A program made the translations under genes and the position numbers. 63,924 bases of DNA from Planctomycetota bacterium (GTDB lineage Bacteria; Planctomycetota; Planctomycetia; Pirellulales; Thermoguttaceae). This document shows, piece after piece, positions 11,428 through 51,179 of this stretch (position 1 is the stretch's first letter; each line of letters opens with the position of its first letter). The notes beneath the pieces were generated by a model. That model saw nothing but the letters and a program-made list of their open reading frames with translations. It was not told the origin of the DNA and did no database searches. The stretch covers positions 1 to 63,924 of the forward strand of contig JAHIKV010000324.1 in NCBI GenBank assembly GCA_018897395.1, given 5' to 3'.

Positions 11428-11847
11428 GAGTCACGCGTCCTACTAGCCACTCCCTACCGTTCGGGCCTTGGGCGTATATTTCTCTCGCCTACTATGCCCT
11501 CTGCTGACTTCTGCGCCGCGCTCCGGGTTCCTCACGGTTCCCTCAGTCCCTGTGCTACGGGACACGTCGCAGACCTCCCGGGGTAAGTCCGACCGCCTTC
11601 ACCGCGCACCTGCCGGATTTACAGCCATGGCCCTTGATGGATATGGACTTCGTGGTCACTTGCCCGCTCGTCCGGCCATGATTGCCTCCTATCCGGTTCT
11701 TGTCCATCAGGTCGCGGTTTTGCTCCACGCTTCCTTCAGACAACACCTCGCGATGCTGCCCTTGCGCTTCACTAACACTTCACCTCCATCAGGTTGTGTA
11801 GAGGACTTTCACCTCCAAGCTGTCGGACATGCCCGGCACACAAGTAT

Positions 11848-14460: not shown

Positions 14461-14568
14461 GCCAGATCCTTTTGTGAGACATCCCGCAACTGCAAACACC
14501 AACCTACACTGATAACCTTACCACTTTTTTCGGCAACGCCGCTCCATACCTTGAGGGCCATCCCCACC

Positions 14569-15368: not shown

Positions 15369-15626
15369 TTGATGCTGGTAGCACTCCATCGAGCAGAATC
15401 TTCTCCCGCCGGACTGGACCCCGGGACCGTGACCCCCCACGTCTTGCGTCACACTTGCGCGACCGAGCTCCTGCGCCGCGGGGTAAACTTGCGGGTGATT
15501 CAGGAAGCCCTGGGCCACAAGAACATCTCAACAACCCAGATCTACACCCACGTTGTCAACGAGGACGTGCGGCGGGCTATGAGGGTGGGGCCTGGGTTGG
15601 GTTTTAGCCGTAGTAGTGGCACTTGA
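15369..15626 (+). pseudogene. tyrosine recombinase (XerC/D-type) C-terminal fragment, copy A
   Basis: ...[50 protein letters not shown]... has the HxLRH and catalytic Tyr region only, with no N-terminal domains. The 105-bp core 15477-15582 recurs at three other sites. Confidence 0.8.
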
Positions 15627-15662
15627 TGGCCTCACCTTTTGCTTACTATTGAATTCTTCGTT

Positions 15663-19626: not shown

Positions 19627-19763
19627 CCCCTGCGCCAGGCAAGCCGCCGCCGCGGGGTAACCCTCCGGGTGATCCAGGAAGCCCTGGGGCACAAGAACAT
19701 ATCCACCACCCAGATCTACACCCACGTCGTAAACGAGGACGTGCGGCGGGCGATGAGCCGTTC
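19627..19763 (+). pseudogene. tyrosine recombinase 3' fragment, copy B
   Basis: [44 protein letters not shown]. Core 19651-19756. Confidence 0.75.
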
Positions 19764-19904
19764 TTACATAACAAAAGCGAGGCCATCTCTGACCCCGCTT
19801 TTCCATGCCTTACCATGCCGAACCGCGCCCTTCCGAACACCGACCACGCCTAACCATACTGGGCCTAACCGAACCCTGCCACGGCATCTTCAAGTACAAC
19901 AAAA

Positions 19905-21114: not shown

Positions 21115-21334
21115 CTTACGCCCGGCAAGCCGCCGGCGCGGGGCAAAGACCCCACGTATACCTTACCTTTGGCCCGGCGGCTGAAGCGGGGTCAACTTCC
21201 GGGTGATCCAGGAGGCCCTCGGGCACAAGAACATCTCCACCACACAGATCTACACCCACGTAGTCAATGAGGACGTCAGGCGGGCTATGAAGGGGGGGCC
21301 TGGGTTAGGTCGGAACCGCAGTGCTTACACTTGA
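21115..21334 (+). pseudogene. tyrosine recombinase 3' fragment, copy C (internally disrupted)
   Basis: LRPASRRRG, then a ~40-bp insert with a stop, then [41 protein letters not shown]...*. Core 21186-21290. The GPGLG tail is shared with copy A. Confidence 0.75.
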
Positions 21335-21381
21335 TTGCCATCATTTTCGTTGCTAATCCTCACCACTTATAGCCACAGTCC

Positions 21382-23067: not shown

Positions 23068-23075
23068 GTACTCTG

Positions 23076-23702
23076 TCATTCGCCAAATGATGGGTAGAGT
23101 TTCTTCAATTTGATCCTAGCATCGTCGGTGGTGAAACGCCAGTCGATGGATGAGTTTTTAGCGTTGCGCGCTTTCTCCCACGCTGCTACCTCATCTCGTA
23201 ATCTCTGCTGGTCGGGAATCCTACGCGAGAGGCACTGGCGGGAAAGGATGCTCAACTCGATCTCCGCCATATTCAGCCAGCTGCCATGCTTCGGGGTGTA
23301 GTGAAGCTCAAGGCGGCACAGTATCCGTCTTGCCTCTTCGGGAGCGAACGCCTCGTAAAGCGAGGAGGGGCAGTGTGTGTTCAAGTTGTCCATGACCACC
23401 GTGATTCTTTTCGCACTGGGGAAGTGCTCGTCCACCAGTTCGCGCATCCCAAGAGCCCAGTCGATCTTCGTCCGCCTGTCGGTGACCTTAACATGCCGCC
23501 AGCCCTCCAAGGGCGCGAAGAACATGAACAGGTTGCTGACGCCGTTGCGCCGGTACTCGGAATCGTAGCGGCGGCCTCGGCCCTGCTTCATGGCATGAGG
23601 CTCGCGCACCTCCATGATCTGCTGCTTGCTCGTCTCATCCATGCAGACAAGGGGGCGCTCCGCGTCACAGGGGCGCGTGTACACCTCAAGAACATCCTCC
23701 AT
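23076..23702 (-). CDS. IS630 transposase, DDE catalytic part (orfB frame)
   Basis: MEDVLEVYTRP...VCMDETSKQ...VVMDNLNTH...WLNMAEIELS is typical of the IS630/Tc1 DDE domain. Confidence 0.85.
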   Translation of the reverse strand: MEDVLEVYTRPCDAERPLVCMDETSKQQIMEVREPHAMKQGRGRRYDSEYRRNGVSNLFMFFAPLEGWRHVKVTDRRTKIDWALGMRELVDEHFPSAKRITVVMDNLNTHCPSSLYEAFAPEEARRILCRLELHYTPKHGSWLNMAEIELSILSRQCLSRRIPDQQRLRDEVAAWEKARNAKNSSIDWRFTTDDARIKLKKLYPSFGE

Positions 23703-23734
23703 CTTCCATACGAACTCGGCGCTGGCAACTGGTG

Positions 23735-24199
23735 CTATACACCACTCTTTGACAAGCCACGGTTTAATTTCGTTTTTTTTAGAACCTGGCGGACCGTCTC
23801 ATGGGAGAGGCTGTCCACATAGGCAAGCTCAACCATCTTCCCGGCCAGCATGCGCAGGGTCCAGCGAGTGTGACCCTCCGGCGCCTCGCTGCATGCCAGC
23901 GCGATCAGATGCGCCTCCTGCTCACCGTCAAGTTTCCTTGCATATGGTCTCGGCTTGATGCTGCGGGCTCCCAGGGCAATGTCCATTCCCTCCTCCACAA
24001 ACCGCTGGCGGATACGTTGCACCGTCGGGAGACTGACAAGAAACGCTTCACGGATCCTCTCGTCTGTCCATCCGGCATCAGCTTTGAGCAGTACGTGTGC
24101 CCACCTGATCCTTCTTGCCGAATGTTTCCCGGTGCTGATTATCTCCTTCAGCTCGTCCCGCTCCTCCTCGGTCAGATCAACAACATATTTCTTGTTCAT
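23735..24199 (-). CDS. IS630 transposase, N-terminal HTH part (orfA frame)
   Basis: DLTEEERDELKEII...ARRIRWAHVLLKADAGW, and a second HTH with SHETVRQVLKK. Ends shortly after an A8 run. Confidence 0.85.
   Translation of the reverse strand: MNKKYVVDLTEEERDELKEIISTGKHSARRIRWAHVLLKADAGWTDERIREAFLVSLPTVQRIRQRFVEEGMDIALGARSIKPRPYARKLDGEQEAHLIALACSEAPEGHTRWTLRMLAGKMVELAYVDSLSHETVRQVLKKTKLNRGLSKSGV
23773..23780 (-). other. A8 slippery run linking transposase orfA and orfB
   Basis: On the coding strand, CUA AAA AAA ACG. A -1 slip on A_AAA_AAA, or one extra A, continues as NEIKPWLVKEWCIAPVASAEFVWKMEDVLEVY into orfB. Confidence 0.55.
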
Positions 24200-24275
24200 G
24201 ATCCCTCCTGTAGAGTATCTCCTACAGGAGAGTATACGATTCAGAACGTATCATGTCAAGCTAGACAGAGTACTA

Positions 24276-24511
24276 GTAGCATCTCGGGTGCAGAGCGTTC
24301 CGTACTCTTTTTCGAGTATGTTGGTTACAACGCGTTTCTTCTCGCTTTTGCTTTCAAACTTACCCCATTCCTTGTTTTTCATAAACGCTTCCCGGGTTTT
24401 AACGACAAACGCCTCATCCACCGCTACTTCCGGGTGGCACTTTCGGCAAAGCTCGCATATTGAGCAAACCTGACCGTTCTCGTCCCCACACTCCTTGCAT
24501 TTAACTGCCAA
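24276..24511 (-). pseudogene. 5' part of the gene split by IS630 (zinc-ribbon N-terminus)
   Basis: TTG start with a GGGGAG RBS. MAVKCKECGDENGQVCSICELCRKC... The annotated ORF runs into the IS end. Confidence 0.55.
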
Positions 24512-24666
24512 TTCTCCCCGTTTCTACGTTCTCTTACTCCTGGATATATCGTTCCACTGGTTTCCCGCCATGAAAGTCAGCCCATCTCTTCATGTGACCT
24601 TCTATGGTTCCCCTCCACTCGCTTTCCCAAGACGTTCGACGTCTCGTCGGTTTCGGGTCCCGGTAT

Positions 24667-25413
24667 TCAGTTGTCGCTGCCTCCTTCAATCTCCCTGCGA
24701 ACCCCTTCCCTGGAGCGAAGGTCTGTGTGGTCAAGAGACTTGCCGTCCCGGTAACCTTGTGAGTATGCGGTTTCGTCCCCAAAGGCGGTGAGCTTCCTTT
24801 TTACACCATTGGTCATCTTCAAATCGTTGACATAGTCTATGACCATCGCGTTTTGCGTTAACACAAGCGCTTTCGACTCTACCTGCTCTCGGAATTTGTT
24901 CTCGAGACCGCTCACGAAGCCTCCGAGGTAATCGTTTCGTATCCTCATGGTTAAGCCGCGTGAACCCTTTCTCCCCCGGGTACTCTCTTTCTTCCACTTG
25001 GTTAAGAAACGATGGAAACATGTTGTGAACGCCCCAAACGCAAACATCAAGGTCTCCTTGCAGACCGCAACATCAGTCTCCAGTCCTATGAGGACAAACT
25101 TGCTCCCCATCCTACTGCCGCCGTAATCGTCTGTCCGAACACATGGCGTTACCCTAAAGTTCTCGCAGATCGGCCTGGTGATCATGAGTTTCCACGTGCT
25201 GGCGGACTTCATGCCGTCTTCTAGCGTTTCCTGTACGACCCGCTCTTCATCTTCCTCGTCGTCCAGGTCACCGACCTCCTCCATGGTTAGCCCGGCGCCG
25301 AGAAGAATCTCCTGCGCTTTCAACAGCGCCGCGAACGCCTCTTCCTCGTATGGTGTTCCGTCGGCAAGCCTCAGTAGCTTTTTCACTTTCGTTACGGTCT
25401 GTGACTTAAGCAA
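24667..25413 (-). CDS. DUF2786-domain protein (phage/plasmid-associated)
   Basis: N-terminus KVKKLLRLADGTPYEEEAFAALLKAQEIL is the DUF2786 signature. The start may be GTG 25386. Confidence 0.7.
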   Translation of the reverse strand: MLKSQTVTKVKKLLRLADGTPYEEEAFAALLKAQEILLGAGLTMEEVGDLDDEEDEERVVQETLEDGMKSASTWKLMITRPICENFRVTPCVRTDDYGGSRMGSKFVLIGLETDVAVCKETLMFAFGAFTTCFHRFLTKWKKESTRGRKGSRGLTMRIRNDYLGGFVSGLENKFREQVESKALVLTQNAMVIDYVNDLKMTNGVKRKLTAFGDETAYSQGYRDGKSLDHTDLRSREGVRREIEGGSDN

Positions 25414-25475
25414 CTATGGTTCAACCCCTTTGTTTCCCATCCTCAAACCGAATATCATCTACTATGTCGATAACA

Positions 25476-25730
25476 TCAATGAACTCGTCGGCAGCCCGTA
25501 TCAACTCCTCGGATGCCCTGTACCCGTTTATCTCGTAGATCTCTCTTGCCTCCGTGCTGGCCAGAATAGTAATATGCTCTGAGCAGCATCCCGTTCTGCG
25601 TCAGTAATTTCAGGAGCTTCACGTAATCAACCTTGAGTTGTAACGGTTCCCAGGTGGCCGATCGCCAGTTCCACCCATCCATGAATATTGCTGTTCGCCC
25701 CAGCTGTGTCACGGTGTAAGAAAGGTTCAT
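25476..25730 (-). CDS. NYN/LabA-like N-terminal fragment, possibly frameshifted
   Basis: TAIFMDGWNW...VDYVKLLKLL...LLRAYYY resembles the start of NYN-domain RNases. The frame ends early, and an adjacent frame stays open to about 25425. Confidence 0.35.
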   Translation of the reverse strand: MNLSYTVTQLGRTAIFMDGWNWRSATWEPLQLKVDYVKLLKLLTQNGMLLRAYYYSGQHGGKRDLRDKRVQGIRGVDTGCRRVH

Positions 25731-25741
25731 CTTGTTGATCG

Positions 25742-26656
25742 TTACCCACCTCTTATCTGTTCGTTCCGTCCGGTTACGCCGGCTCCAACGAGTATCTCGC
25801 CCTTATCCTCTCGCGCTTCGTACGCTTTTTCCGCCCTTGCGTGGTCTTCAACCGCATAACAGTAGATGCACCCGTGAGGGCACGAGTTATATGCGCCGAT
25901 GTCTCGAGACTCAAAACAGCAACACCCTTCCCTGTTCCCCTTCCTTTTTGCCTTGATTGGGTAGCCGGCCACGTCTGACAACCTGTAGGCGTCAACGCAG
26001 GCTGCCTCTTGCGCCCCGCCAACCGCATATTTCTTCTGAGAGCAAACGCTTAACTGCATCCTTCTTTCCGCCGCCACCTGCACCAGGTCTGACACCAGCT
26101 CTCTTTTTGACCAGTCTGATGGGTCAAACCACCTGAATCCCTGTTCTGCCGCAGCCCTGTTCATGTTCGTCGTGGTTTTTTGATACATCTGTGCGAATGA
26201 AACCACTACCTCATCTACCGCCCCCTCCAATGCTCTGGCCATTGCGTTGAACCTCGTTATATGCTGTTCTAACGTCATCGTGTTTGTCACCACTATTGGG
26301 TCATACCTCCACACCACGGTCCTCGGACCGTACCGTTCAGCCACCGCATGGGCCTGCTCAACAGAATCCCTCCAATCAACAACGCGCCCTTCGAGCTCTC
26401 TGGGATAACCATTAATCGTGTGCTGGATGATAAACGGGTAGCCGAGCGCGTCTATTTCTTCCAAATGGGGCAAGAAAGGGCCTAAGTTCTTGGTCCAGAA
26501 CACAAAGCCGTCAACATCGTCTCTGCCTAGAGGCACCCGGTTCTCGGTGCCGTTGTAGGGGTTACTTACCTTGCAGTGCCCCTCACGGAGCCTGGCCATG
26601 AACCATTCCCCGTAAAACGCCGGTATGTCGGTTCTGTAGCTTGCAGATATTATCAA
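25742..26656 (-). CDS. DUF1848-domain protein
   Basis: IISASYRTDIPAFYGEWF, VDGFVFWTKN, and a C-terminal Cys cluster CCCFESRDIGAYNSCPHGCIYCYA. Confidence 0.75.
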   Translation of the reverse strand: MIISASYRTDIPAFYGEWFMARLREGHCKVSNPYNGTENRVPLGRDDVDGFVFWTKNLGPFLPHLEEIDALGYPFIIQHTINGYPRELEGRVVDWRDSVEQAHAVAERYGPRTVVWRYDPIVVTNTMTLEQHITRFNAMARALEGAVDEVVVSFAQMYQKTTTNMNRAAAEQGFRWFDPSDWSKRELVSDLVQVAAERRMQLSVCSQKKYAVGGAQEAACVDAYRLSDVAGYPIKAKRKGNREGCCCFESRDIGAYNSCPHGCIYCYAVEDHARAEKAYEAREDKGEILVGAGVTGRNEQIRGG

Positions 26657-26724
26657 TATTCCCCTTTGGCTGCTTGCGCCCTATTATCCTACAAGGCATC
26701 AACATTCTCACGTGGACGTTGTAG

Positions 26725-27042
26725 CTACCACCCCCTTGCTATTGTCTCTGTGAACGTGTATCCGCGGCCAAGCCCGGTCGGTGCCGACACCCTCAGGGCT
26801 TCTCCAGATGCCCGCGCGGCGACTATCTCTCGAACCCCGTCGCCCGTGAGGTCGTCATTGTTGAAGAAGAGATCGTCCACCATCGCCTGCACTACAGCAT
26901 CCTCATCTTCATAATCGAACTCCGCCAGCTCGCTTGGCTCCATGAGCGAAAGGTAATACTTGACCAATATCGCCCCTGCCTTGCGCCACGCCATCCGGAA
27001 CTGCTCGTTGTCTCGGTCTCTTTCTGGTATAGTTATTGCCAT
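26725..27042 (-). CDS. hypothetical protein
   Basis: Started at ATG 27042 (GGAGGT RBS), downstream of the conserved promoter at 27089-27117. Confidence 0.5.
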   Translation of the reverse strand: MAITIPERDRDNEQFRMAWRKAGAILVKYYLSLMEPSELAEFDYEDEDAVVQAMVDDLFFNNDDLTGDGVREIVAARASGEALRVSAPTGLGRGYTFTETIARGW

Positions 27043-27088
27043 GTTCTCTACCTCCGTTTCAAGGGGCTCTTGCTTTTTGCCTAGAACC

Positions 27089-27117
27089 ATAATATTATGG
27101 TAGAGATAGTACGTCAA
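27089..27117 (-). promoter_or_regulatory. element-type promoter
   Basis: GTTGACGTACTATCTCTACCATAA-TATTAT (TTGACG, 17 nt, TATTAT). Confidence 0.7.
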
Positions 27118-27135
27118 CATATGGAGGTGTCGCAC

Positions 27136-27549
27136 ATGGTGGAACAAGAGAATCAGTATCTGGTCTTCTACGAGAGAGTCCTATTGGCCTCAGCTATCAT
27201 CTTTGGGTTCATCGGCGGCTTCACGATTTATCTCACCTGCACGCCTGACACCCCTGCCAATTCAACGGTTCAGGTATTCCTCATAATATCTCTGGCCATG
27301 CTGTCCTTTTCTGTCTTCTCTGGCCTTCTCGCGCCTCTTTACTTCATGTCTTACTGCACCAAAGATCCGTACGGATCCCTTCTGTTTTTCAGGAGGAAGG
27401 AAGAGGTTAAGGGAGACGAAGCCCTGAACCAGTTGCAGAAGGACAAGAAGCGAAATTACGAGAGCCTCTTTCTTTTCCAGTTGACGTTTTTCGTTCTTGG
27501 CCAACTTTTCCTTTTCGTTGCCATATTCGTCAACATGTTCTGGGACTGA
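27136..27549 (+). CDS. small membrane protein
   Basis: ATG 27136 preceded by GGAGGTG. Three hydrophobic segments. AT-richer than its surroundings. Confidence 0.45.
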   Translation: MVEQENQYLVFYERVLLASAIIFGFIGGFTIYLTCTPDTPANSTVQVFLIISLAMLSFSVFSGLLAPLYFMSYCTKDPYGSLLFFRRKEEVKGDEALNQLQKDKKRNYESLFLFQLTFFVLGQLFLFVAIFVNMFWD

Positions 27550-27632
27550 GGCCCATTCTTCGTCAATCTTGAACCAGCCAGTACTGGTCGACGTCTTACC
27601 CGGGGAACAGAACCTCTCTGCCAGTTGTTTGT

Positions 27633-27721
27633 TGGTGCCGACGGAGGGATTCGAACCCCCACGCCCGTTGCCGGACACCTGGATTTAAGCCAAGCGCGTC
27701 TTCCAGTTCCGCCACGTCGGC
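27633..27721 (-). tRNA. tRNA-Leu(UAA)
   Basis: Acceptor GCCGACG/CGUCGGC, anticodon loop CU-UAA-AU, long variable arm, T-loop UUCGAAU, CCA encoded. Confidence 0.85.
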
Positions 27722-27797
27722 TGGTAGCCCCTGCTGGTCTCGAACCAGCGGCCTCCTGTTTGTAAGACAGGCGCTCTCCCTGCTGAGCTAAGGGGCT
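27722..27797 (-). tRNA. tRNA-Val(UAC)
   Basis: Loop CU-UAC-AA, A1-U72, CCA encoded. Confidence 0.85.
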
Positions 27798-27801
27798 GTG
27801 T

Positions 27802-27888
27802 TGGTACCGGTGGAGAGAGTCGAACTCCCACGCCCTTTCGGACACCTGGTCCTAAGCCAGGCGCGTCTTCCAGTTCCGCCACACCGGC
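27802..27888 (-). tRNA. tRNA-Leu(UAG)
   Basis: Loop CU-UAG-GA, long variable arm, CCA encoded. Confidence 0.85.
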
Positions 27889-28051
27889 ACGGTTACCGCA
27901 ACAGCCATTAACCCCGGTTCCGTTCTACCCGGCCATCTATCTCGAGGCTTTATGCACCCCAGGTCATTGTTTCCCCCGGAGTTTCTCCTAAGGAACACTC
28001 GTTCCTCAGCGACAGGTGGTTGTCGCGGCAATATTCAGTTTTCAAGGTAGC

Positions 28052-28139
28052 TGGTGGCCGCACCAGGATTCGAACCTGGATGCTCGATGCGAACGGGAGC
28101 TTTTGAGGCCCCTGCGTCTTCCAATTCCGCCATACGGCC
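28052..28139 (-). tRNA. tRNA-Leu(CAA)
   Basis: Loop CU-CAA-AA, long variable arm, CCA encoded. Confidence 0.85.
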
Positions 28140-28142
28140 ATT

Positions 28143-28218
28143 TGGTCCCGAGGGCTGGGATTGAACCAGCGACGCCCTGGTCTTCGGCCAGGCGCTCTAC
28201 CGTCTGAGCTACCTCGGG
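28143..28218 (-). tRNA. tRNA-Phe(GAA), C33 variant
   Basis: Stem CCUGG/CCAGG, loop CC-GAA-GA (C at position 33), C1-G72, CCA encoded. Confidence 0.75.
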
Positions 28219-28221
28219 TTC

Positions 28222-28312
28222 TGGCGGAGAGAGCAGGACTCGAACCTGCAAGACGGCACTTGACCGTCCACGGGTTAGCAACCCGCTGCCTTACCAATTC
28301 GGCCACCTCTCC
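28222..28312 (-). tRNA. tRNA-Ser(GCU)
   Basis: Loop UU-GCU-AA, long variable arm, CCA encoded. Confidence 0.85.
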
Positions 28313-28313
28313 G

Positions 28314-28387
28314 TGGTTTGGGAGGGAGGGATCGAACCTCCAGCACCAGGTCCAAAGCCTGGCGTTCTACCGTTGAACTACTCCCAA
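28314..28387 (-). tRNA. tRNA-Gln(UUG)
   Basis: U1-A72, loop CU-UUG-GA, CCA encoded. Confidence 0.85.
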
Positions 28388-28388
28388 G

Positions 28389-28462
28389 TGGATGCCCGGG
28401 GAGGGGTCGAACCCCCGTCTCCTGGTCCAGGGCCAGGCGTCTTCCCACTAGACTACCGGGCA
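28389..28462 (-). tRNA. tRNA-Gln(CUG), C33 variant
   Basis: U1-A72, loop CC-CUG-GA (C33), CCA encoded. Confidence 0.75.
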
Positions 28463-28463
28463 T

Positions 28464-28556
28464 TGGCGGAGGGGAAGGGGATCGAACCCTTAAGACCCTC
28501 TCGGGCTCAACTGTTTTCAAGACAGTCTCCGTCGCCAGCCTTCGGATTGCCCCTCC
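28464..28556 (-). tRNA. tRNA-Ser(UGA)
   Basis: Acceptor GGAGGGG/CCCCUCC, G73, 3-bp D stem, loop CU-UGA-AA, long variable arm, CCA encoded. Confidence 0.8.
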
Positions 28557-28569
28557 GCACGCTTATAAT

Positions 28570-28646
28570 TGGTCGGGGTGGCAGGATTTGAACCTGCGCC
28601 CCCATGGTCCCAAACCATGTGCGCTACCTGACTGCGCCACACCCCG
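28570..28646 (-). tRNA. tRNA-Pro(UGG)
   Basis: Loop UU-UGG-GA, CCA encoded. Confidence 0.85.
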
Positions 28647-28655
28647 ATGATTTTC

Positions 28656-28731
28656 TGGAGCGACCGGCGGGTCTTGAACCCGCGACCTCAACCCTGGCAA
28701 GGTTGCGCTCTACCGTCTGAGCTACGGTCGC
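28656..28731 (-). tRNA. tRNA-Gly(GCC)
   Basis: Loop UU-GCC-AG, CCA encoded. Confidence 0.85.
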
Positions 28732-28732
28732 T

Positions 28733-28807
28733 TGGAGCGAGCAAAGGGGTTCGAACCCTTATGGCCGACTTGGAAGGCCGGGGCTCTACCGATTGAGCTA
28801 TGCTCGC
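28733..28807 (-). tRNA. tRNA-Gly(UCC)
   Basis: Loop CU-UCC-AA, CCA encoded. Confidence 0.85.
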
Positions 28808-28883
28808 TGGTGGAACCGGTCGGGATCGAACCGACAACCTCCTGGTTGCAAACCAGGTGCTCTCCCGATTGAGCTACAGTCCC
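28808..28883 (-). tRNA. tRNA-Ala(UGC)
   Basis: Loop UU-UGC-AA, G3:U70 identity pair present, CCA encoded. Confidence 0.9.
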
Positions 28884-28887
28884 GCGA

Positions 28888-28963
28888 TGGTCGGCCCGGC
28901 AAGAATCGAACTTGCAATCTACCGGTTAAGAGCCGGTTGCTCTGCCAATTGAGCTACGGGCCG
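28888..28963 (-). tRNA. tRNA-Lys(CUU)
   Basis: Loop CU-CUU-AA, CCA encoded. Confidence 0.85.
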
Positions 28964-28964
28964 A

Positions 28965-29039
28965 TGGTAGCGGCGGTGGGGATCGAACCCACGACCTCCA
29001 GGGTATGAACCTGGTGAGCTAACCACTGCTCCACGCCGC
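28965..29039 (-). tRNA. tRNA-Met(CAU), elongator type
   Basis: Loop UU-CAU-AC, paired 1:72, no GGG/CCC anticodon stem, CCA encoded. Confidence 0.8.
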
Positions 29040-29044
29040 ATTGT

Positions 29045-29119
29045 TGGGGTGACCTACCGGAATCGCACCGGCACCTCCAGGGCCACGGCCTGACGCTCTT
29101 CTATTGAGCTAAGGTCACC
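29045..29119 (-). tRNA. tRNA-His(GUG), C33 and atypical T-loop
   Basis: Encoded G-1 opposite C73, loop CC-GUG-GC (C33), T-loop UGCGAUU, CCA encoded. Confidence 0.7.
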
Positions 29120-29123
29120 TCGT

Positions 29124-29200
29124 TGGCTGCGGTGGCAAGATTCGAACTTGCGACACGGCGGTTAACAGCCGCCTGCTCTACCACTGAGCTACACCGCAGC
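29124..29200 (-). tRNA. tRNA-Asn(GUU)
   Basis: Loop CU-GUU-AA, CCA encoded. Confidence 0.85.
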
Positions 29201-29350
29201 GTTGCCCGACCCCACTCGAGAGGTCGGGCTTGCCGTTGACCGCCCTGGCCGATCACGTTACCTTAATACTGCTGCAAACGCTCTTGCTTCTCTCTTCAAT
29301 CAAACCCCCTTCCTTGCCTTTCTTTGCCAGTCACTCACGCTTTAGTTTTT

Positions 29351-29434
29351 TGGTGGGGATGTCAGGAATCGAACCTGCCTAGTCATCGACGCCGGGGTTA
29401 CGGCCCGGCACAGCTCCCACGCTGTCGCATCCCC
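29351..29434 (-). tRNA. tRNA-Tyr(GUA), C33 variant
   Basis: Loop CC-GUA-AC (C33), long variable arm as in bacterial tRNA-Tyr, CCA encoded. Confidence 0.7.
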
Positions 29435-29435
29435 T

Positions 29436-29509
29436 TGGAGGCGGAGACAGGAATCGCACCTGCGTGTGCCGGTTTGCAGCCGGCCGCTTTTCTCCTCAGC
29501 CACTCCGCC
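29436..29509 (-). tRNA. tRNA-Cys(GCA), atypical T-loop
   Basis: Loop CU-GCA-AA, T-loop UGCGAUU, CCA encoded. Confidence 0.75.
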
Positions 29510-29510
29510 T

Positions 29511-29584
29511 TGGTGGACCCGGATGGTGATGCTCCACCTCCTCCCGCTTATGAGGCGGGCGTTCTCCTGTTAAACTACGGGTCC
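29511..29584 (-). tRNA. tRNA-Ile2-like (CAU), atypical T-loop
   Basis: Loop CU-CAU-AA. Acceptor and D-arm (GGACCCGUAGUUUAAC) are nearly identical to tRNA-Ile(GAU) at 30085. T-loop AGCAUCA. CCA encoded. Confidence 0.65.
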
Positions 29585-29660
29585 TGGAGCCGGTGGAGGG
29601 CATCGAACCCCCGACCTTGGCATTACAAGTGCCCTGCTCTGCCATCTGAGCTACACCGGC
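29585..29660 (-). tRNA. tRNA-Thr(UGU)
   Basis: Loop CU-UGU-AA, CCA encoded. Confidence 0.85.
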
Positions 29661-29664
29661 TGTT

Positions 29665-29740
29665 TGGCACCCCCGCGAGGATTTGAACCCCGAACCTCCC
29701 GGGCCGAAACCGGGCGCTCTATCCGTTGAGCTACGGAGGT
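29665..29740 (-). tRNA. tRNA-Arg(UCG)
   Basis: A1-U72, loop UU-UCG-GC, CCA encoded. Confidence 0.8.
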
Positions 29741-29767
29741 ACATGTTGTTTGTCTTTTTCTGCTATT

Positions 29768-29844
29768 TGGAGGCCATCCCCGGACTCGAACCGGGAACAT
29801 CCACCTTAGGAGGGTGACGCTCTGTCCAGTTGAGCTAGATGGCC
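29768..29844 (-). tRNA. tRNA-Arg(CCU)
   Basis: Loop CU-CCU-AA, CCA encoded. Confidence 0.85.
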
Positions 29845-29852
29845 TTTTCCTT

Positions 29853-29929
29853 TGGAGCCCCCGGTCGGACTTGAACCTACAACCTGTGGATTAGAAGTCC
29901 ACCGCTCTATCCAATTGAGCTACGGGGGC
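29853..29929 (-). tRNA. tRNA-Arg(UCU)
   Basis: Loop CU-UCU-AA, CCA encoded. Confidence 0.85.
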
Positions 29930-29930
29930 T

Positions 29931-30005
29931 TGGCGCCCTGTAGGAGAGTCGAACTCCTATCTCCTCCTCGACAGGGAGGTATGCTTGCCACTACACCAAC
30001 AGGGC
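29931..30005 (-). tRNA. tRNA-Asp(GUC)
   Basis: Loop CU-GUC-GA, CCA encoded. Confidence 0.85.
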
Positions 30006-30084
30006 TGGTGGCCTCTGAGGGATTTGAACCCTGCGTTTCCGGGTTGAAAGTCCGGCGTCCTTGACCTGGCTGGACGAAGAGGCC
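30006..30084 (-). tRNA. tRNA-Glu(UUC)
   Basis: Loop CU-UUC-AA, enlarged D-loop, CCA encoded. Confidence 0.8.
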
Positions 30085-30159
30085 TGGTAGACCCGGAAGG
30101 CTTCGAACCCTCGCTTCACCCTAATCAGGGGTGCGTTCTGCCGGTTAAACTACGGGTCT
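30085..30159 (-). tRNA. tRNA-Ile(GAU), U37 variant
   Basis: Stem CACCC/GGGUG, loop CU-GAU-UA (pyrimidine at position 37), CCA encoded. Confidence 0.75.
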
Positions 30160-30347
30160 TTTAGGATGCCTAGCCGCTACCACCCAGGCCACTAAGGACC
30201 GGGGTCCACCCCAAACCGCTTCACTCCTCGCGGCAACACTCCCCGGGTCACACCGGGCGGAGTGCTTTCGGCACCAATACTTTTCCAGCTATTCTTTTTT
30301 CAAGGTTCCGCATCCCGCGTCTTTCCAGCGAGACAGTCACCGACTAT

Positions 30348-30423
30348 TGGTTGCGGGGGCGGGAGTTGCACCCGCACCCTCAGGGTTATGAACCCCGCTG
30401 AGCTGCTCCAGCTCCACCCCGCT
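30348..30423 (-). tRNA. initiator tRNA-fMet(CAU), atypical T-loop
   Basis: A1/A72 mismatch, GGG/CCC pairs closing the anticodon stem, loop UU-CAU-AA, T-loop UGCAACU, 3' end CCCCGCAACCA as in bacterial initiators. Confidence 0.75.
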
Positions 30424-30431
30424 TCATTTCC

Positions 30432-30507
30432 TGGTGGAGGTGGCAGGCCTCGAACCTGCGGCCTCCGGGTTAAAAGCCCGTTGCTCTGCCGTCTGAGCTA
30501 CACCTCC
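30432..30507 (-). tRNA. tRNA-Lys(UUU)
   Basis: Loop CU-UUU-AA, CCA encoded. Confidence 0.85.
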
Positions 30508-30509
30508 GC

Positions 30510-30584
30510 TGGCGGGCCGGGAAGGACTCGAACCTCCACTCTCCGGTTTTGGAGACCGTTGTGTTCCCGTTACACCACCGACCC
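30510..30584 (-). tRNA. tRNA-Trp(CCA)
   Basis: Loop CU-CCA-AA, G73, CCA encoded. Confidence 0.85.
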
Positions 30585-30595
30585 GTACTCCCACT

Positions 30596-30619
30596 AAAAA
30601 ACCGCCCCGTTCGAGGCGG
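30596..30619 (-). terminator. intrinsic terminator-like hairpin 12 nt upstream of the first tRNA
   Basis: RNA CCGCC-UCGAACGG-GGCGG followed by UUUUUU. tRNA-Trp starts at 30584. Confidence 0.6.
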
Positions 30620-30881
30620 CCTTGAGGAGTAATCCGTCAAAGAGTCACGTTACGCCCCCCGACCACCGCCTTCCCGTACGCCCTCGAAATAACCTGTGAG
30701 GGCACAAATCGGGTCCCAGGTCCCTGATGGCACCGTCTGGTGCTTCAAGGTTTTCCTCGCTATTCCATTCAGTTGTCGTGCTCTTCGTTTCACCATCAAC
30801 CTTCCGCTTTTCGTTCCCTGTCTATACAAACGCTTTCCATTCTGCGCTTGTTCCCAGTCAACACCTTTCTCTACAATAACT

Positions 30882-30910
30882 ATAATACTATCGCCATGAT
30901 AGTGAGTCAA
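30882..30910 (-). promoter_or_regulatory. element-type promoter heading the leader and tRNA array
   Basis: GTTGACTCACTATCATGGCGATAG-TATTAT (TTGACT, 17 nt, TATTAT). Confidence 0.65.
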
Positions 30911-30977
30911 CCGTCATTTCAACAATAATGTCCCTGATATTTTTCATGCCTGATGAATCTCCACCCGCTATTGCGGC

Positions 30978-31262
30978 TTATATCTTCTTCGCCGGCCTTC
31001 CGGCAGACTTCTTCTTTGCTGGTTTCTTAGCAGCCTTCTTCTTTGCGGGAGCTTTCCGCTTCTTCGCGGCCGCCCTCTTCTTGGCCGGTTTTTTCGCAAC
31101 CTTCTTTTCTACCGCACTTATCCTTGCGTCCAGCTCCTTTATGTCCTGGGTAGTAGCTACTCCAACCGTGTTCAGGGCCTTCCGCATTGCCCCGACTACC
31201 GCATCGTCCAACTCGCTCCTGATCTCTTCTATGGACTTCGTTACCTTCTTTTTCTCAGCCAT
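30978..31262 (-). CDS. histone-H1-like Lys/Ala-rich DNA-binding protein with phasin-like N-terminus
   Basis: 94 aa. Helical N-terminus (TTQDIKELDARISAVEKKV), then a KKPAKKRAAAKKRKAPAKKKAAKKPAKKK tail. Confidence 0.6.
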   Translation of the reverse strand: MAEKKKVTKSIEEIRSELDDAVVGAMRKALNTVGVATTQDIKELDARISAVEKKVAKKPAKKRAAAKKRKAPAKKKAAKKPAKKKSAGRPAKKI

Positions 31263-31372
31263 CCGTACCCCTCCTTATACGTATGTGTATACAGCAGGAT
31301 TTATTATACACGAAGGTGTCACGTTGCTGTATTATTGCGCAGTTTCGTCTACCTGCTTGCAGTGTTCAATCT

Positions 31373-31873
31373 TTATTCTTCTGCCAAGCCCCACAATAGT
31401 TCCTTCACCAACTCTTCTCGCTTGTATCCCAGCCCCAACCTGTAAACCCCTATCAGAAGAACGGTTGCACCGCCGGCAATCCAGTAGATCAGATGTTGTA
31501 CTGCCCTGTCCTGATCTTCTAGTTCGTATCTGTCCATGTCGTACTCATCGTCCAGCGAGTACTCCCTCCCGTTTCTTTTGCTTCGCCACCTCTTTGCCCT
31601 AAAGGTATCTTCCGCTACTTCGATACTCTCAAGTACGGTATCTCCACTCTGGTAGACATAGTGCTGCCCTCCCGCCGGCAACTTCCAGTTAATCAAGACA
31701 AGTGCTATGAATACACCGACCGCGACCACGACTATTGCTGTCACAAGCGTATTTCTCGTGGATTGCAACTCATCGTTTGCCTTCGCTATTGCGGCATCGT
31801 CACCCCTTCCCCCCACATCTCTCTGGTCTATGGGTTCGCCGCCCTTTTTTGCCCAGTAAAGTACGCCTCTCAA
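31373..31873 (-). CDS. two-TM membrane protein, unknown function
   Basis: 166 aa with hydrophobic segments VTAIVVVAVGVFIALVLI and IAGGATVLLIGVY. Confidence 0.5.
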   Translation of the reverse strand: MRGVLYWAKKGGEPIDQRDVGGRGDDAAIAKANDELQSTRNTLVTAIVVVAVGVFIALVLINWKLPAGGQHYVYQSGDTVLESIEVAEDTFRAKRWRSKRNGREYSLDDEYDMDRYELEDQDRAVQHLIYWIAGGATVLLIGVYRLGLGYKREELVKELLWGLAEE

Positions 31874-31930
31874 TCTCTCACTCCCGTCCTTTCCCCCAGC
31901 AGTTCATCCCCCTTACAATACCACTCGTCG

Positions 31931-33973
<2,043 letters not shown>

Positions 33974-33980
33974 CTATATG

Positions 33981-34009
33981 ATAATACGATGGTACGGATT
34001 GTAGGTCAA
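33981..34009 (-). promoter_or_regulatory. element-type promoter (ligA)
   Basis: GTTGACCTACAATCCGTACCATCG-TATTAT. Confidence 0.7.
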
Positions 34010-34031
34010 CCTTGAGGACGTCAATTACCCA

Positions 34032-34388
34032 TCAGGGTTTCAGTCTTGAGGTAACAAAGTTGTTGTCCCAGTGTAAGTCCTTCCGCGTACACCGGGTCGC
34101 CGACCCCCAGTCCCTTCGAGCAGCCTCTATGCACTGCTCTCTAGCCACGCCGCATATTCCTTCGCACACCACGGGTGGAAAATCGCCGCCCCCTATGATC
34201 TGATAGCAGTTCTCGCAACAACTCATCCACTTTTGTGGCCTGTTCTTATTCTTGAAATGCTTCGGGCAGTCCCTCCCCCCTTGGGCTTCATCCCCGCACC
34301 ACGCGTCATCGTAGTTCTTACACTCGAAGCGGTTGCCCGGTTTCATGAGCACACTTTTGTCCTCGCGCACCTTAAGCGACATCTTCAA
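34032..34388 (-). CDS. Cys-rich hypothetical protein
   Basis: 118 aa with 12 Cys (CCENC, CEGIC). Confidence 0.45.
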   Translation of the reverse strand: MKMSLKVREDKSVLMKPGNRFECKNYDDAWCGDEAQGGRDCPKHFKNKNRPQKWMSCCENCYQIIGGGDFPPVVCEGICGVAREQCIEAARRDWGSATRCTRKDLHWDNNFVTSRLKP

Positions 34389-34608
34389 CCTTTCCGAAAT
34401 CCTCGTAGGCGAATATCTCGGTCATCGCCAGTTCGTTGTCAGCCGCGTTGAACACGTCCACTATCACCCCGATTGGAGGCCTGTCGTCATCTTCCTTCAC
34501 CTCTATGTGCAGTTTCTGCTCCTTGGTGACCTCGCAGAACGCCTCCACGATAACCCTGCCGCCATCCCCCCGAGTAACTTTTAGCACTGCCTTCTCCCTT
34601 CGTTTCAA
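34372..34608 (-). CDS. hypothetical protein
   Basis: 78 aa. The TTG start is very close to the predicted transcription start. Confidence 0.4.
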   Translation of the reverse strand: MKRREKAVLKVTRGDGGRVIVEAFCEVTKEQKLHIEVKEDDDRPPIGVIVDVFNAADNELAMTEIFAYEDFGKVEDVA

Positions 34609-34619
34609 CTTGTGATTAC

Positions 34620-34648
34620 ATCATACGTTGCCGTAGATTGTACGTCAA
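34620..34648 (-). promoter_or_regulatory. element-type promoter
   Basis: ATTGACGTACAATCTACGGCAACG-TATGAT. Confidence 0.65.
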
Positions 34649-34666
34649 TCTATCCCCCTTTTCGTT

Positions 34667-34696
34667 ATGACTAATTGACAATTCAGTAAGTATAAT
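34667..34696 (+). promoter_or_regulatory. possible divergent promoter for a non-coding transcript
   Basis: ATGACT, 18 nt, TATAAT. No plausible ORF follows. Confidence 0.4.
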
Positions 34697-34702
34697 GTAT
34701 CA

Positions 34703-34835
34703 TGTAATTGCCCGTTCAGCGGGCGCACTGGGATTGTCCTCCCGGTGTATGACGTCACCTCCAAGGGGTCGCTTCCGAGCGGCTCCGCCGGGCGCTAAAG
34801 CTTAGCCCCCAGCCGAGTCGCTGGGGGTGATTTCA
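34703..34835 (+). ncRNA. candidate small RNA (~130 nt)
   Basis: Downstream of the promoter above. Hairpins GCCCG-UUCA-GCGGGC and AGCCCCCAGC-CGAGUC-GCUGGGGGU, followed by GAUUUCAUCU. The longest ORF is 18 codons. Confidence 0.35.
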
Positions 34836-35036
34836 TCTCTGGACAATGCGTTAGGTCTAAAAACACATTAGAGCCTGTCAGGGGCTAGACCATGTTGTGC
34901 CAAATCGTTCCACTTCACACTATATGTTGCCAATATTGTGCATGGTAACGCATGTTTACGCACATAGGGGTTAACAAATAATTAGCAATGTAACTCTGGG
35001 GGTTTTTGCTCAGCAAACAGCCTTCTAGCTTGCTTG

Positions 35037-35261
35037 CTACAGCTCACAAAGCGCTCTTTCCAGGTACTTGATCATTAGTGGCACCTGGTCCTCCCTCAGT
35101 CGCAGTCCCTTCTTGGTTGGGCCTTCATAATCATCCTTGGAAACATACTCTCTCGCGTCAATATAGGGCCCGTATTTCCCCTCCCCTTTGGTCACCACCA
35201 CGTAGGATCCGTATTGGTTCTTCGCGAACTCGGCTACGTGCCCGTCTATGTGCTCGAACAC
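35037..35261 (-). CDS. PC4/YdbC-like ssDNA-binding protein (putative)
   Basis: 74 aa. YIDAREYV...GPTKKGLRLREDQVPLMIKYLE resembles bacterial PC4-fold YdbC proteins. Confidence 0.5.
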   Translation of the reverse strand: MFEHIDGHVAEFAKNQYGSYVVVTKGEGKYGPYIDAREYVSKDDYEGPTKKGLRLREDQVPLMIKYLERALCEL

Positions 35262-35541
35262 GCTTTCCCCCTTTCCACTTCAACGCGCTCTAGGTTTCTC
35301 ACAAGCGACATCCAGATTATTCTCTCCCTTGTCCCCTTGTCGTCCCAATCCGTTTCCCGAACCAGTTCCACCACCACCGATTCTCCACCCAGGTGGTCCT
35401 TTACAACGTCCCCCCGCTTGCCATGTCTGCTAAAGTCACCCTCTCAGATGGTGTTCCCGGCGCAAGCACCTCGTCACCCTCTTCTGTTGTCGTGGCCTTC
35501 CCGTATATCACGATGGAGATACGCCGCTCTTGTTCATCCAC
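35246..35541 (-). CDS. hypothetical protein interrupted at a G6 run (two frames)
   Basis: GTG 35541 with an AAGGGAGG RBS opens frame 1, which stops at 35403-35401. Frame 2 (35410 to TAG 35248-35246) has no start of its own. The two frames meet at the G6 run (C6 on the plus strand, 35410-35415). Confidence 0.4.
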
Positions 35542-35962
35542 GGGTCGCCTCCCTTTGTTCAATGTCTCCCGGGTATGCCGCATAGTCACCCATGCTCGTC
35601 TGGCTGTCGTCCAGCCAGTCAAGCCCTATCCAGCTGAGCCTCTCGCAAAGCTTCTTCCATCCCCGCCCTTCTCGGGTGCCGTCGCACTTGTAGGAGAAGC
35701 GGTCCATGAGCAGTTTGAGGCCTGCCCTTCTCTGCTCTGGTGTGGCCTCGTAGGGGAACCTTGTGCAGTAACTTGCATCATCCAGGTCTTCCCATTCCTT
35801 GTACTCAGGGTTCCAGCGCGAGAAGTAAAAGCGGAGCAACGCTTTGTCCTGGGGATCCTTTTCGTTGTAATAGCCGCAATATCCCTCGCCGATATACTGC
35901 CACTCGACCTTTAGGTCTTCCTGTACAAGTTCGTCACAGTCGGGTTCGACAGCCTCTTTCAT
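35534..35962 (-). CDS. hypothetical protein
   Basis: Started at ATG 35962 (MKEAVEPD), overlapping the upstream stop as TAATG. Confidence 0.5.
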   Translation of the reverse strand: MKEAVEPDCDELVQEDLKVEWQYIGEGYCGYYNEKDPQDKALLRFYFSRWNPEYKEWEDLDDASYCTRFPYEATPEQRRAGLKLLMDRFSYKCDGTREGRGWKKLCERLSWIGLDWLDDSQTSMGDYAAYPGDIEQREATRG

Positions 35963-36333: not shown

Positions 36334-36963
36334 CTAGATATACGCCGGGTCGTGCTGTCTTTTGAGCGCGGTCCTTATTGTGTTGTGCGCTCTCTTGAGA
36401 TGCCCCTCCAGGGGGACCCCTGAATCCAGCAGCCCCTCTATTGCCGTAGATATGGCCTGGGCGTCTTCTCGCATCAGGCTTATTTCTACCTGCTTGTTGC
36501 CAAACGTTTCCTTGAGTGTATGTTGCCATCCAAGCGACACTATCAGCGCATCCCTTGCCTGCTCGAACTGCTCTGCATTTTCTGCCGGCGTCAGGGCGGG
36601 TCTTCCGTATTCGAGACTCTCCCCCTCTTCATGCACGTGCCGCAGGTACTCCGCGCAGTAATCCATCTCATAGGTGACATGTTCCGCCTCGTCTGTCTTG
36701 AGGACCACCGTTACAACCTCGTTGTCGTTTCCAGTAAGCGCGTCCTCTGACGCGTCCGCCGTCCCCTTGAAAAGCGCGGCTGTTGCCAGCTCTTCATCGT
36801 TTGATTCCATTCCTAGGCGCAGGATATCTTTTGCCCGACGTTCCATCTCGTCTCTCAGGAACTTTGCGTTCCCCCTTGTCATAGAAGCTTCTATCTCAAC
36901 CAACGGGATGCCCCCCTCTCTTATGTGTAATCTTATCGTATGTTCTAAGAGATAGTTGGTCAA
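36334..36963 (-). CDS. hypothetical protein
   Basis: 209 aa. No family recognised. Confidence 0.5.
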   Translation of the reverse strand: MTNYLLEHTIRLHIREGGIPLVEIEASMTRGNAKFLRDEMERRAKDILRLGMESNDEELATAALFKGTADASEDALTGNDNEVVTVVLKTDEAEHVTYEMDYCAEYLRHVHEEGESLEYGRPALTPAENAEQFEQARDALIVSLGWQHTLKETFGNKQVEISLMREDAQAISTAIEGLLDSGVPLEGHLKRAHNTIRTALKRQHDPAYI

Positions 36964-37033
36964 CTGTTGCCGGTGAATATCTGTTTTTGGGAAAGTTTGG
37001 GGCTGTTTCCGGATACTCAGCTATTTGAAGTTG

Positions 37034-37990: not shown

Positions 37991-38032
37991 CTTGTCAAAT
38001 CATCCACCTTTCGGGTTGTATTCCTGTCTGTT

Positions 38033-38061
38033 ATATTATAATGCGTGGGATAGTACGTCAA
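38033..38061 (-). promoter_or_regulatory. element-type promoter
   Basis: GTTGACGTACTATCCCACGCATTA-TAATAT. Confidence 0.7.
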
Positions 38062-38101
38062 CTGTTTTAGAAACACACATTTTTCTTTTCAAGCCATTCT
38101 C

Positions 38102-40036: not shown

Positions 40037-40071
40037 CTTTTCCCCTCGGGAACGTTCGTTATCTTGTTTAT

Positions 40072-40100
40072 ATATTATTATGTAAGGGATAGTACGTCAA
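40072..40100 (-). promoter_or_regulatory. element-type promoter
   Basis: GTTGACGTACTATCCCTTACATAA-TAATAT. Confidence 0.7.
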
Positions 40101-40244
40101 CCTTATAGCTTTATTCATCCCCATTCTCGGCCTCCCGGGTCGCCTCATTTCCTTTTATGACTTCTCCCAATCAAATTTCTCACAGGATGGCGGGTCTAAC
40201 CGCTCTCCTGGAAAAAATAGACAAAAAAGGCAACTGGATCGTAT

Positions 40245-44799: not shown

Positions 44800-44836
44800 C
44801 CCTTCCCCCTCTGTCTATCGCCTCGACACTATGTAT

Positions 44837-44865
44837 ATAATAGGGTGGATAGGATAGTGCGTCAA
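44837..44865 (-). promoter_or_regulatory. element-type promoter (ssb)
   Basis: GTTGACGCACTATCCTATCCACCC-TATTAT. Confidence 0.7.
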
Positions 44866-44927
44866 CCTTGAATCCAATAATATATTGTCCTTCGGGTGTT
44901 TTCTGGTGTCTCTCTGTGCTGTTCTAT

Positions 44928-51131: not shown

Positions 51132-51150
51132 GCTTATCACCTCAAGTATT

Positions 51151-51179
51151 AATATATGTTCTATGGGATAGTACGTCAA
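51151..51179 (-). promoter_or_regulatory. element-type promoter (AAA+/vWA/HIRAN operon)
   Basis: GTTGACGTACTATCCCATAGAACA-TATATT. Confidence 0.7.

Follow-up and report, generated by a model that had tools for sequence, protein, structure and literature searches.

Why should an orderly set of tRNA genes on a mobile island break several of the near-universal rules of tRNA structure? This question is raised by a dense tRNA array in a 63,924-bp contig of an NCBI metagenome-assembled genome (MAG) whose bin is labelled Planctomycetes; the contig at its full length is referred to below as the window. The array occupies positions 27633-30584 of the minus strand, comprises 30 genes in 2952 bp (about 10.2 genes per kb by ARAGORN and Rfam) and lies within a phage/plasmid-like island. 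Several of its members carry C33 instead of U33, a pyrimidine at position 37, or G55 in the T-loop. Judging from the sequence evidence presented below, we put at roughly one half the probability that the deviant tRNAs are functional members of a long tRNA array on this island, in which the odd bases are tolerated or compensated.

The tRNA genes were called with ARAGORN (29 genes, minus strand, 27633-30584) and with the Rfam model RF00005, which added one more (29514-29584; 29511-29584 with its CCA). A preliminary description of the locus, made from the letters alone, had read C33 in four tRNAs, U37 in one and aberrant T-loops in four, and had proposed covariance-model alignment as the check on the loop registers. 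This alignment was run and placed neither a U33 nor a standard T-loop in the deviant genes. ARAGORN cloverleaves and covariance-model columns concurred on C33 in tRNA-Phe(GAA) (28143-28218, minus strand like all genes below; loop CCGAAGA; 61.5 bits), tRNA-Gln(CUG) (28389-28462; CCCUGGA; 57.1 bits), tRNA-His(GUG) (29045-29119, ARAGORN span 29045-29118; CCGUGGC; 54.4 bits) and the class II tRNA-Tyr(GUA) (29351-29434; CCGUAAC), which was aligned with the tRNA-Sec model. The two methods also agreed on U37 in tRNA-Ile(GAU) (30085-30159; CUGAUUA), where A37, the site of N6-threonylcarbamoyladenosine (t6A), is expected, and on G55 in the T-loops of tRNA-His and tRNA-Cys(GCA) (29436-29509; 57.5 bits), both UGCGAUU, and of the initiator-type tRNA-Met(CAU) (30348-30423; UGCAACU). 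A shifted loop register was thereby ruled out. The fourth unusual T-loop, AGCAUCA (A54 G55 ... U58), was confirmed by covariance-model alignment in the CAU tRNA missing from the ARAGORN calls (29511-29584; 52.1 bits). This gene is 72% identical overall to that of tRNA-Ile(GAU) and nearly identical in acceptor stem and D arm; because these two parts are common to both, the likely assignment is Ile2 (lysidine), and the gene counts as a paralogue of Ile-GAU. Its 54-58 pair is swapped to A54...U58, as it is in the Gly and Asp tRNAs of mycobacteriophage Bxz1.

Further deviations came to light beyond those listed at the outset. tRNA-Tyr and tRNA-Ser(UGA) (28464-28556; ARAGORN and tRNA-Sec model) both have C8 and unusual D arms, the initiator has U14 and one extra base after position 26, the third CAU tRNA, elongator Met by default (28965-29040; Rfam 64.1 bits), has a U1.U72 mismatch, and tRNA-Glu an A31.C39 mismatch. 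An independent ENA contig, L291, reached by a look-up with a re-started open reading frame (ORF) of 105 aa, is 100% identical over 24273-35860 and includes the whole array. Because this independent contig is identical across the array, the deviant bases are not assembly errors, and sequencing or assembly error was ruled out as their source.

Part of the case for compensation comes from the tRNA elbow, where G18 contacts Psi55 (PMC7912444). All three tRNAs with U54-G55 (His, Cys and initiator) have A18, compared with none of the 26 U55 tRNAs (Fisher p = 0.001). Their 7-nt D-loops (AAUAGAA, AGGAGAA and UGGAGCA, respectively) carry A-G at the G18-G19 site, which reads GG in 26 of 26 U55 tRNAs. 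Position 18 in these short D-loops was assigned by alignment to the canonical 7-nt D-loop of tRNA-Asn (AGUGGUA). G19 and C56 are kept in all three. Since the three A18/G55 tRNAs are otherwise unrelated in sequence, the G18-Psi55 contact appears to have undergone a repeated paired change, and this points to A18 with G55 as a compensated tertiary contact. No description of an A18/G55 pairing was found in the papers searched, which is a weak negative.

G55 without G18 is also seen in a tRNA of plasmid delta of Anabaena PCC 7120 (L169, 2507-2584, minus strand), called Glu-CUC by ARAGORN. Its T arm, GCGGG-UGCAACU-CCCGU, is nearly identical to that of the array initiator, and its D-loop, AAAUAAGAUAA, lacks GG. 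It is a second, independent case of a tRNA with G55 and no G18.

The preliminary description had further held that these genes do not look like decayed pseudogenes, and this judgement stood: stems are intact, 28 of the 30 genes score 38.6-72 bits against an RF00005 threshold of 29 bits, identity elements are kept and positions 18 and 55 co-vary. Disrupted helices, low scores, lost identity elements and unconstrained substitution, the marks of pseudogenes, do not characterise the array, its weakest members in this respect being the initiator, Tyr and Ser(UGA). The aminoacylation identity elements known for bacteria are kept throughout the array. Ala has G3.U70, Pro has C1-G72, and both Gln tRNAs (the C33-bearing Gln-CUG included) and Asn have U1-A72; U73 is present in Cys and Gly and G73 in Trp and Asp; A20 is present in all three Arg tRNAs, and long variable arms in Leu, Ser and Tyr. 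In tRNA-His an encoded G-1 (base 29119) faces C73, and the initiator-type tRNA has an A1xA72 mismatch, A11:U24 and GGG/CCC in the anticodon stem, as in bacterial initiators; these His and initiator features, previously noted as kept, could be read in both sequence and cloverleaf.

A protein search with the ligase of the island yielded two relatives on which constraint can be gauged. The first, variant L164, is 97.5-98.5% identical to the element and spans the ten leading tRNAs, from Trp to Thr, and differs at 11 of 711 tRNA positions (1.5%) compared with 19 of 491 non-tRNA positions (3.9%; p = 0.014), changes thus being sparser inside the tRNAs than in the spacers. Of the 11 tRNA changes, nine lie at D-loop positions 16, 17 or 20 or in the variable loop, none in an anticodon loop or T-loop, and one restores the Glu pair. 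The UGCAACU T-loop and A18 of the initiator and the U37 of tRNA-Ile are retained, while U72 of tRNA-Ile is changed to C. This is the pattern expected of tRNAs under purifying selection, seen here in a small sample. The second relative, L162/L163, is a distant element whose ligase is 62% identical and which has no other protein in common with the window by BLASTP. It carries a single tRNA-His inside a same-strand string of orphan genes of 50% GC, and the anticodon loop of this tRNA, UCGUGGC, again has C33, within a tRNA whose D-loop and T-loop are canonical. C33 in tRNA-His has thus persisted across very divergent elements. The tRNA-His of this element (L162, 7317-7390; L163, 3054-3127) has C73 and a U at position -1, with no encoded G-1, unlike that of the window. 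Given the 18/55 co-variation, the substitution pattern in L164, the recurrence of C33 in tRNA-His and the kept identity elements, the rule-breaking tRNAs are most likely working genes and not decayed copies.

How unusual the deviations are was evaluated by running comparator tRNAs through the same parser. Among 45 chromosomal tRNAs from ligase-neighbourhood loci, many of them of Actinomycetota, there was no C33, no pyrimidine at 37 and one base other than U at 55. The 24 array tRNAs of Shigella phage Sf14 included no C33 and no G55, with U37 in one CAU tRNA; the 28 of Bxz1 included two with C33 (both Val), two with the T-loop AUCGUAA and none with G55; and the 24 of the L-array on the Anabaena 7120 delta plasmid included none with C33 and one with G55. 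C33 is therefore found in 4 of 30 array tRNAs versus 2 of 121 pooled comparators (Fisher p = 0.015). The load of deviations is unusual, while the individual deviations are not unique.

The array as a whole resembles a known kind of element. tRNA array units, defined by a minimum of 20 tRNA genes and of 2 genes per kb (PMC4758250), and the related L-arrays are supernumerary, horizontally moving tRNA operons of Actinobacteria, Cyanobacteria and others (PMC4758250, PMC5966550, PMC8421152). With 30 genes at 10.2 per kb, the window array has the required density, and it shares with these units a same-strand set with spacers of a few nucleotides, coverage of about 20 amino acids, a setting in mobile DNA (a low-GC island with ParA/ParB, SSB, exonuclease, ligase, IS630, promoter motifs and bracketing repeats) and probable occurrence in Actinobacteria, where such units are known. 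It differs by its higher load of C33 (four) and A18/G55 (three) tRNAs than in the parsed arrays, and by its probable host among uncultivated Actinomycetota, no close relative of the island having been found in plasmid, phage, IMG/VR, GTDB or JGI searches. In the Anabaena L-array, 23 of 26 tRNAs are aminoacylated in vivo and three are undetectable, and the operon is induced under translational stress (PMC8421152).

Cluster C1 mycobacteriophages such as Bxz1 likewise have tRNA sets on actinobacterial mobile elements with non-canonical anticodon loops. Their C33 tRNA-Val(GAC) and tRNA-Val(CAC) are kept in 142-144 of 161 C1 phages (about 89%), and the Bxz1-type C33 Val and AUCGUAA sequences are kept in most of them (PMC10264068 supplement). 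The AUCGUAA T-loops (A54...U58), found in Gly-GCC and Asp-GUC of the Bxz1 cluster (L166, 94-101 kb), resemble that of the window CAU tRNA. In contrast to the array, where C33 is found in Phe, Gln, His and Tyr, these phages have it in Val; no UGCGA or UGCAA (G55) T-loop is present in the PMC10264068 data set, and no phage structural genes were seen in the window. Functional bacterial tRNAs without the G18/U55 elbow contact are known from the non-proteinogenic tRNA-Gly of Staphylococcus (PMC4574755, PMC7826273). The S. aureus tRNA-Gly lacks G18, G19, U55 and C56 (PMC4574755) and serves cell-wall synthesis with Fem transferases, whereas the window G55 tRNAs keep G19-C56 and include the sole His and Cys members of a complete set. 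C33 and altered T-loops are also compatible with the ribosome in a special-purpose tRNA of another domain of life. Eukaryotic cytoplasmic initiator tRNAs have C33 and A54/A60; in the window, C33 is found in elongators and the initiator keeps U33. The A54-A58 of the eukaryotic initiators is mentioned in PMC7912444. The tRNA-array kind of element, C33, A54/U58 T-loops and a tRNA with G55 and no G18 are thus already known. Less familiar are the explicit A18-G55 pairing and the gathering of four C33 elongators with three A18/G55 tRNAs in a single set that is otherwise orderly and complete.

Several features suggest how the array would work. All 30 genes are on the same strand and all 30 encode CCA at the 3' end (ARAGORN, Rfam); gene order is free of repetition, and the spacers are operon-like and not periodic, with a median of 3 nt and three longer gaps of 152-188 nt that gave no Rfam match. 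The anticodons cover all 20 amino acids, the three CAU tRNAs being of initiator, elongator and Ile2 types, and every four-codon box is served by one U34 tRNA, the unusual Arg-UCG among them. By wobble rules the set could in principle read every sense codon. A 31-nt promoter-like motif, GTTGAC(G/T/C)nACTATCc...TAtTAT, was found by motif search in eight copies, all within the island and all on the coding (minus) strand, at 27088-27118, 30881-30911, 33980-34010, 36934-36964, 38032-38062, 40071-40101, 44836-44866 and 51150-51180. These copies have the look of a promoter family specific to the element, with a spacer box that is conserved. One copy supplies a promoter-like site, TTGACT-N17-TATTAT (30882-30910, minus strand), from which the first tRNA lies about 300 nt downstream. 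We infer that the array tRNAs are expressed, charged and used in translation. The 30 genes would be co-transcribed from one or more sigma-70-type promoters of the element itself, and the transcript would be cut into tRNAs already carrying CCA. The product would be a set able to decode on its own, with a U34 tRNA for each four-codon box. Such a set may support translation for the element or its host at times when housekeeping tRNAs are scarce or damaged. The unusual bases would be fixed and either tolerated or compensated: at the elbow A18 goes with G55, and the anticodon arms that hold C33 are otherwise normal. They could be kept through relaxed constraint on a redundant set or through positive selection, for example for escape from tRNA-targeting enzymes.

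A number of observations weigh against the deviant tRNAs being working members. The initiator reaches only 38.6 bits with RF00005 and has U14 and the extra base after position 26. tRNA-Tyr has no RF00005 match and is found only by the tRNA-Sec model, at a below-threshold 39.6 bits with an identical loop register, and tRNA-Ser(UGA), also under the RF00005 threshold, likewise matches only the tRNA-Sec model (41.4 bits, below threshold). In E. coli, t6A37 matters for recognition by isoleucyl-tRNA synthetase and for the reading of ANN codons, and U37 in tRNA-Ile removes the modification site. The only near relative, L164, extends over 10 of the 30 genes, with every C33 tRNA outside it, and the selection test drawn from it is based on 30 substitutions in total. 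The Anabaena G55 tRNA without G18 may itself be one of the three undetected (pseudogene) members of that array. Finally, a strong, G+C-rich hairpin with a U run behind it, GGCCGCCUCGAACGGGGCGGUUUUUU (30598-30625, minus strand), lies 14 nt upstream of tRNA-Trp, at the end of a leader of about 270 nt (30585-30882, minus strand) between the promoter-like motif and the array. From its sequence and fold it looks like a terminator or attenuator, placed between the nearest promoter and the genes. It could provide conditional read-through control of the array. The leader gave no Rfam family match, and its fold z-score of -1.75 is not unusually stable.

The alternative that survives best is adaptive evasion, put forward in the preliminary description by analogy with phage tRNAs, in which C33, U37 and A18/G55 would remove determinants of tRNA-targeting nucleases or toxins, so that translation continues despite loss of host tRNAs; we regard it as a tentative possibility that deserves to be kept in view. 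This reading is not new: it has been published for phage tRNAs (PMC10264068) and extended to array units, having been suggested for those of mycobacteria (PMC12803027), and tRNAs of phages are reported to rescue infection where retrons or other defences act (PMC11555353). The deviations of the array fall in the anticodon loop and the elbow, both of them surfaces read by tRNA-targeting enzymes; C33 recurs in the tRNA-His of two elements and in a conserved mycobacteriophage tRNA-Val; and the substitution pattern in L164 suggests that the deviant tRNAs are under selection. Set against this, the four C33 tRNAs fit the target set of no single known nuclease. For colicin E5, position 33 may be any pyrimidine, which also counts against evasion. 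So does the finding that U33C was without effect on cleavage by the K. lactis gamma-toxin (PMC2275089). Among about 50 window proteins scanned, none matched PrrC, RloC, VapC, PARIS, colicin-type or other tRNA nucleases, the sole ribonuclease-type match being a weak NYN ORF, and PADLOC matches in the window were confined to Cas4-like, DUF1848 and MBL accessory domains. In a more specific form, C33 and A18.G55 would be countermeasures that hide the element tRNAs from enzymes reading U33 or G18-Psi55 while keeping ribosome function, with A18.G55 as a previously unrecognised isosteric replacement; we consider this unlikely, though worth stating.

Early decay has a smaller share of our credence and strikes us as improbable. 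It supposes that the array is redundant and that the C33 group, Ile-U37, the initiator, Tyr and Ser-UGA are drifting towards pseudogenes. The positions hit (U33, R37, U55, U8 and A14) are near-essential elsewhere, 3 of 26 Anabaena array tRNAs were undetectable (PMC8421152), mismatches are present in Glu (A31.C39) and Met (U1.U72) and, in L164, U72 of Ile is changed to C; nearby, there are a truncated NYN gene and a recently inserted IS630 copy. However, the helices are intact and the identity elements kept, drift does not predict 18/55 co-variation in three independent tRNAs, no L164 substitution falls in an anticodon loop or T-loop, and C33 in tRNA-His is conserved across very divergent elements.

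A lineage trait, by which chromosomal tRNAs of the host clade would bear the same bases (such as C33 in tRNA-His) and the element would have copied them, appears improbable. It would accommodate the presence of C33 in the tRNA-His of two elements whose ligases group with those of uncultivated Actinomycetota. Yet both C33-bearing tRNA-His genes lie inside low-GC, one-strand strings of orphan genes and are for this reason taken to be element-borne. Because 26 of the 30 array tRNAs have U33 and 26 of the 30 have U55, the translation apparatus does not seem to be generally altered, and C33 was found in none of the 45 chromosomal tRNAs of other bacteria. Least credible of all is a non-ribosomal role of the G55 tRNAs (His, Cys and initiator-like) as amino-acid donors, decoys or regulators off the ribosome and EF-Tu, for which the S. 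aureus tRNA-Gly without G18, G19, U55 and C56 sets a precedent (PMC4574755), but G19 and C56 are kept here, the His and Cys tRNAs are the only ones for those amino acids in a complete set, and neither a Fem-like domain nor another aminoacyl-tRNA transferase was seen among the scanned window proteins.

The island that carries the array spans about 36 kb (15478-51436, minus strand) and was delimited by GC content, domain scans and a bracketing repeat: GC is 50-55% between about 15.5 and 51.4 kb compared with 58-64% in the flanks, and four direct copies of a 154-nt repeat (62-83% identity) lie at 15478-15631, 19652-19805, 21186-21339 and 51283-51436, the outermost ones matching the edges of the low-GC stretch. 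Its genes, among them some for partition, replication and recombination, encode ParA, ParB, SSB, a HIRAN protein, an NAD-dependent LigA, a PD-(D/E)XK (Cas4-like) exonuclease, a MoxR ATPase, a CobT-like VWA protein, a radical-SAM protein that also has a B12-binding domain, DUF1848 and DUF2786/DUF7168, together with an IS630 copy and many orphan ORFs. No integrase, capsid, terminase or other phage structural gene was recognised in the window and no empty site was found; we thus call the stretch a phage/plasmid-like island and claim no more. The IS630-type transposase (23071-24272) is split into two ORFs (23076-23702 and 23735-24199). Since this copy is missing from the otherwise identical contig L291, it represents a recent insertion polymorphism. 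Next to the array, a gene trio DUF1848 - NYN - DUF2786/DUF7168 (25476-26656) is intact in an 86% identical relative (L170), where the NYN protein has 214 aa; in the window the NYN remnant is an 84-aa ORF with a weak match (E = 0.0015, below the Pfam cut-off). PADLOC has a model for defence genes associated with reverse transcriptases, and DUF1848 matches it.

Two large surface-type proteins with TIG/DUF5719 domains (and BNR repeats) flank the island on both sides (11881-14502 and 51472-56655, minus strand) and are paralogous, as repeat segments are common to both; a DUF5719/Big protein likewise ends the distant relative L162. Further out, a group II intron (10042-11757, minus strand) is recognised by its RF02001 and RF01998 domains and a reverse transcriptase/maturase ORF. 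The flank proteins also occur in several MAGs labelled "Actinobacteria bacterium", and the island ligase is closest (58%) to ligases of uncultivated Actinomycetota. On these two grounds the host is probably an actinobacterium, and the Planctomycetes label of the bin is probably wrong.

Identical copies of the island are present in six other public assemblies. More distant relatives were sought along several routes. Array DNA searched against plasmids and phages, and tRNA-His searched alone, returned only generic tRNA similarity; a 25-nt match to the tRNA-His of a Moogle-like phage was rejected as a relative, the T-loop there being the canonical UUCGAUU. Scans of GTDB genomes and JGI metagenomes for the ligase locus gave 58% identical chromosomal ligases as best matches, with no array nearby. 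IMG/VR scans with DUF1848, the CobT-like protein, the exonuclease and the His C33+G55 pattern yielded no relative. A looser pattern, CAGGYCGTGGCCCTGG, gave at least 120 IMG/VR matches, but 0 of 120 loci fetched had a tRNA at the match, and these were discarded as chance matches. The DUF1848 search led to the 86% relative, whose contig has no tRNA array. The 166-aa protein adjoining the array had no homologue outside the element, and look-ups with spurious ORFs across the array retrieved no further contigs.

What the array means for tRNA biology depends on whether the deviant tRNAs are active and on whether their changes block tRNA-cutting enzymes. Should neither be the case, the locus would add one more to the known tRNA array units, with a few genes peculiar to it. 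Activity of the deviant tRNAs would mean that U33 and the G18-Psi55 contact are less indispensable than textbooks hold, and the array would then offer natural test sequences, with four C33 elongators and three A18.G55 tRNAs beside canonical controls in one operon. If the changes block tRNA-cutting enzymes, the idea of counter-defence by phage tRNAs would extend to non-phage islands of uncultivated Actinomycetota, and would reach the tRNA elbow in addition to the anticodon loop.

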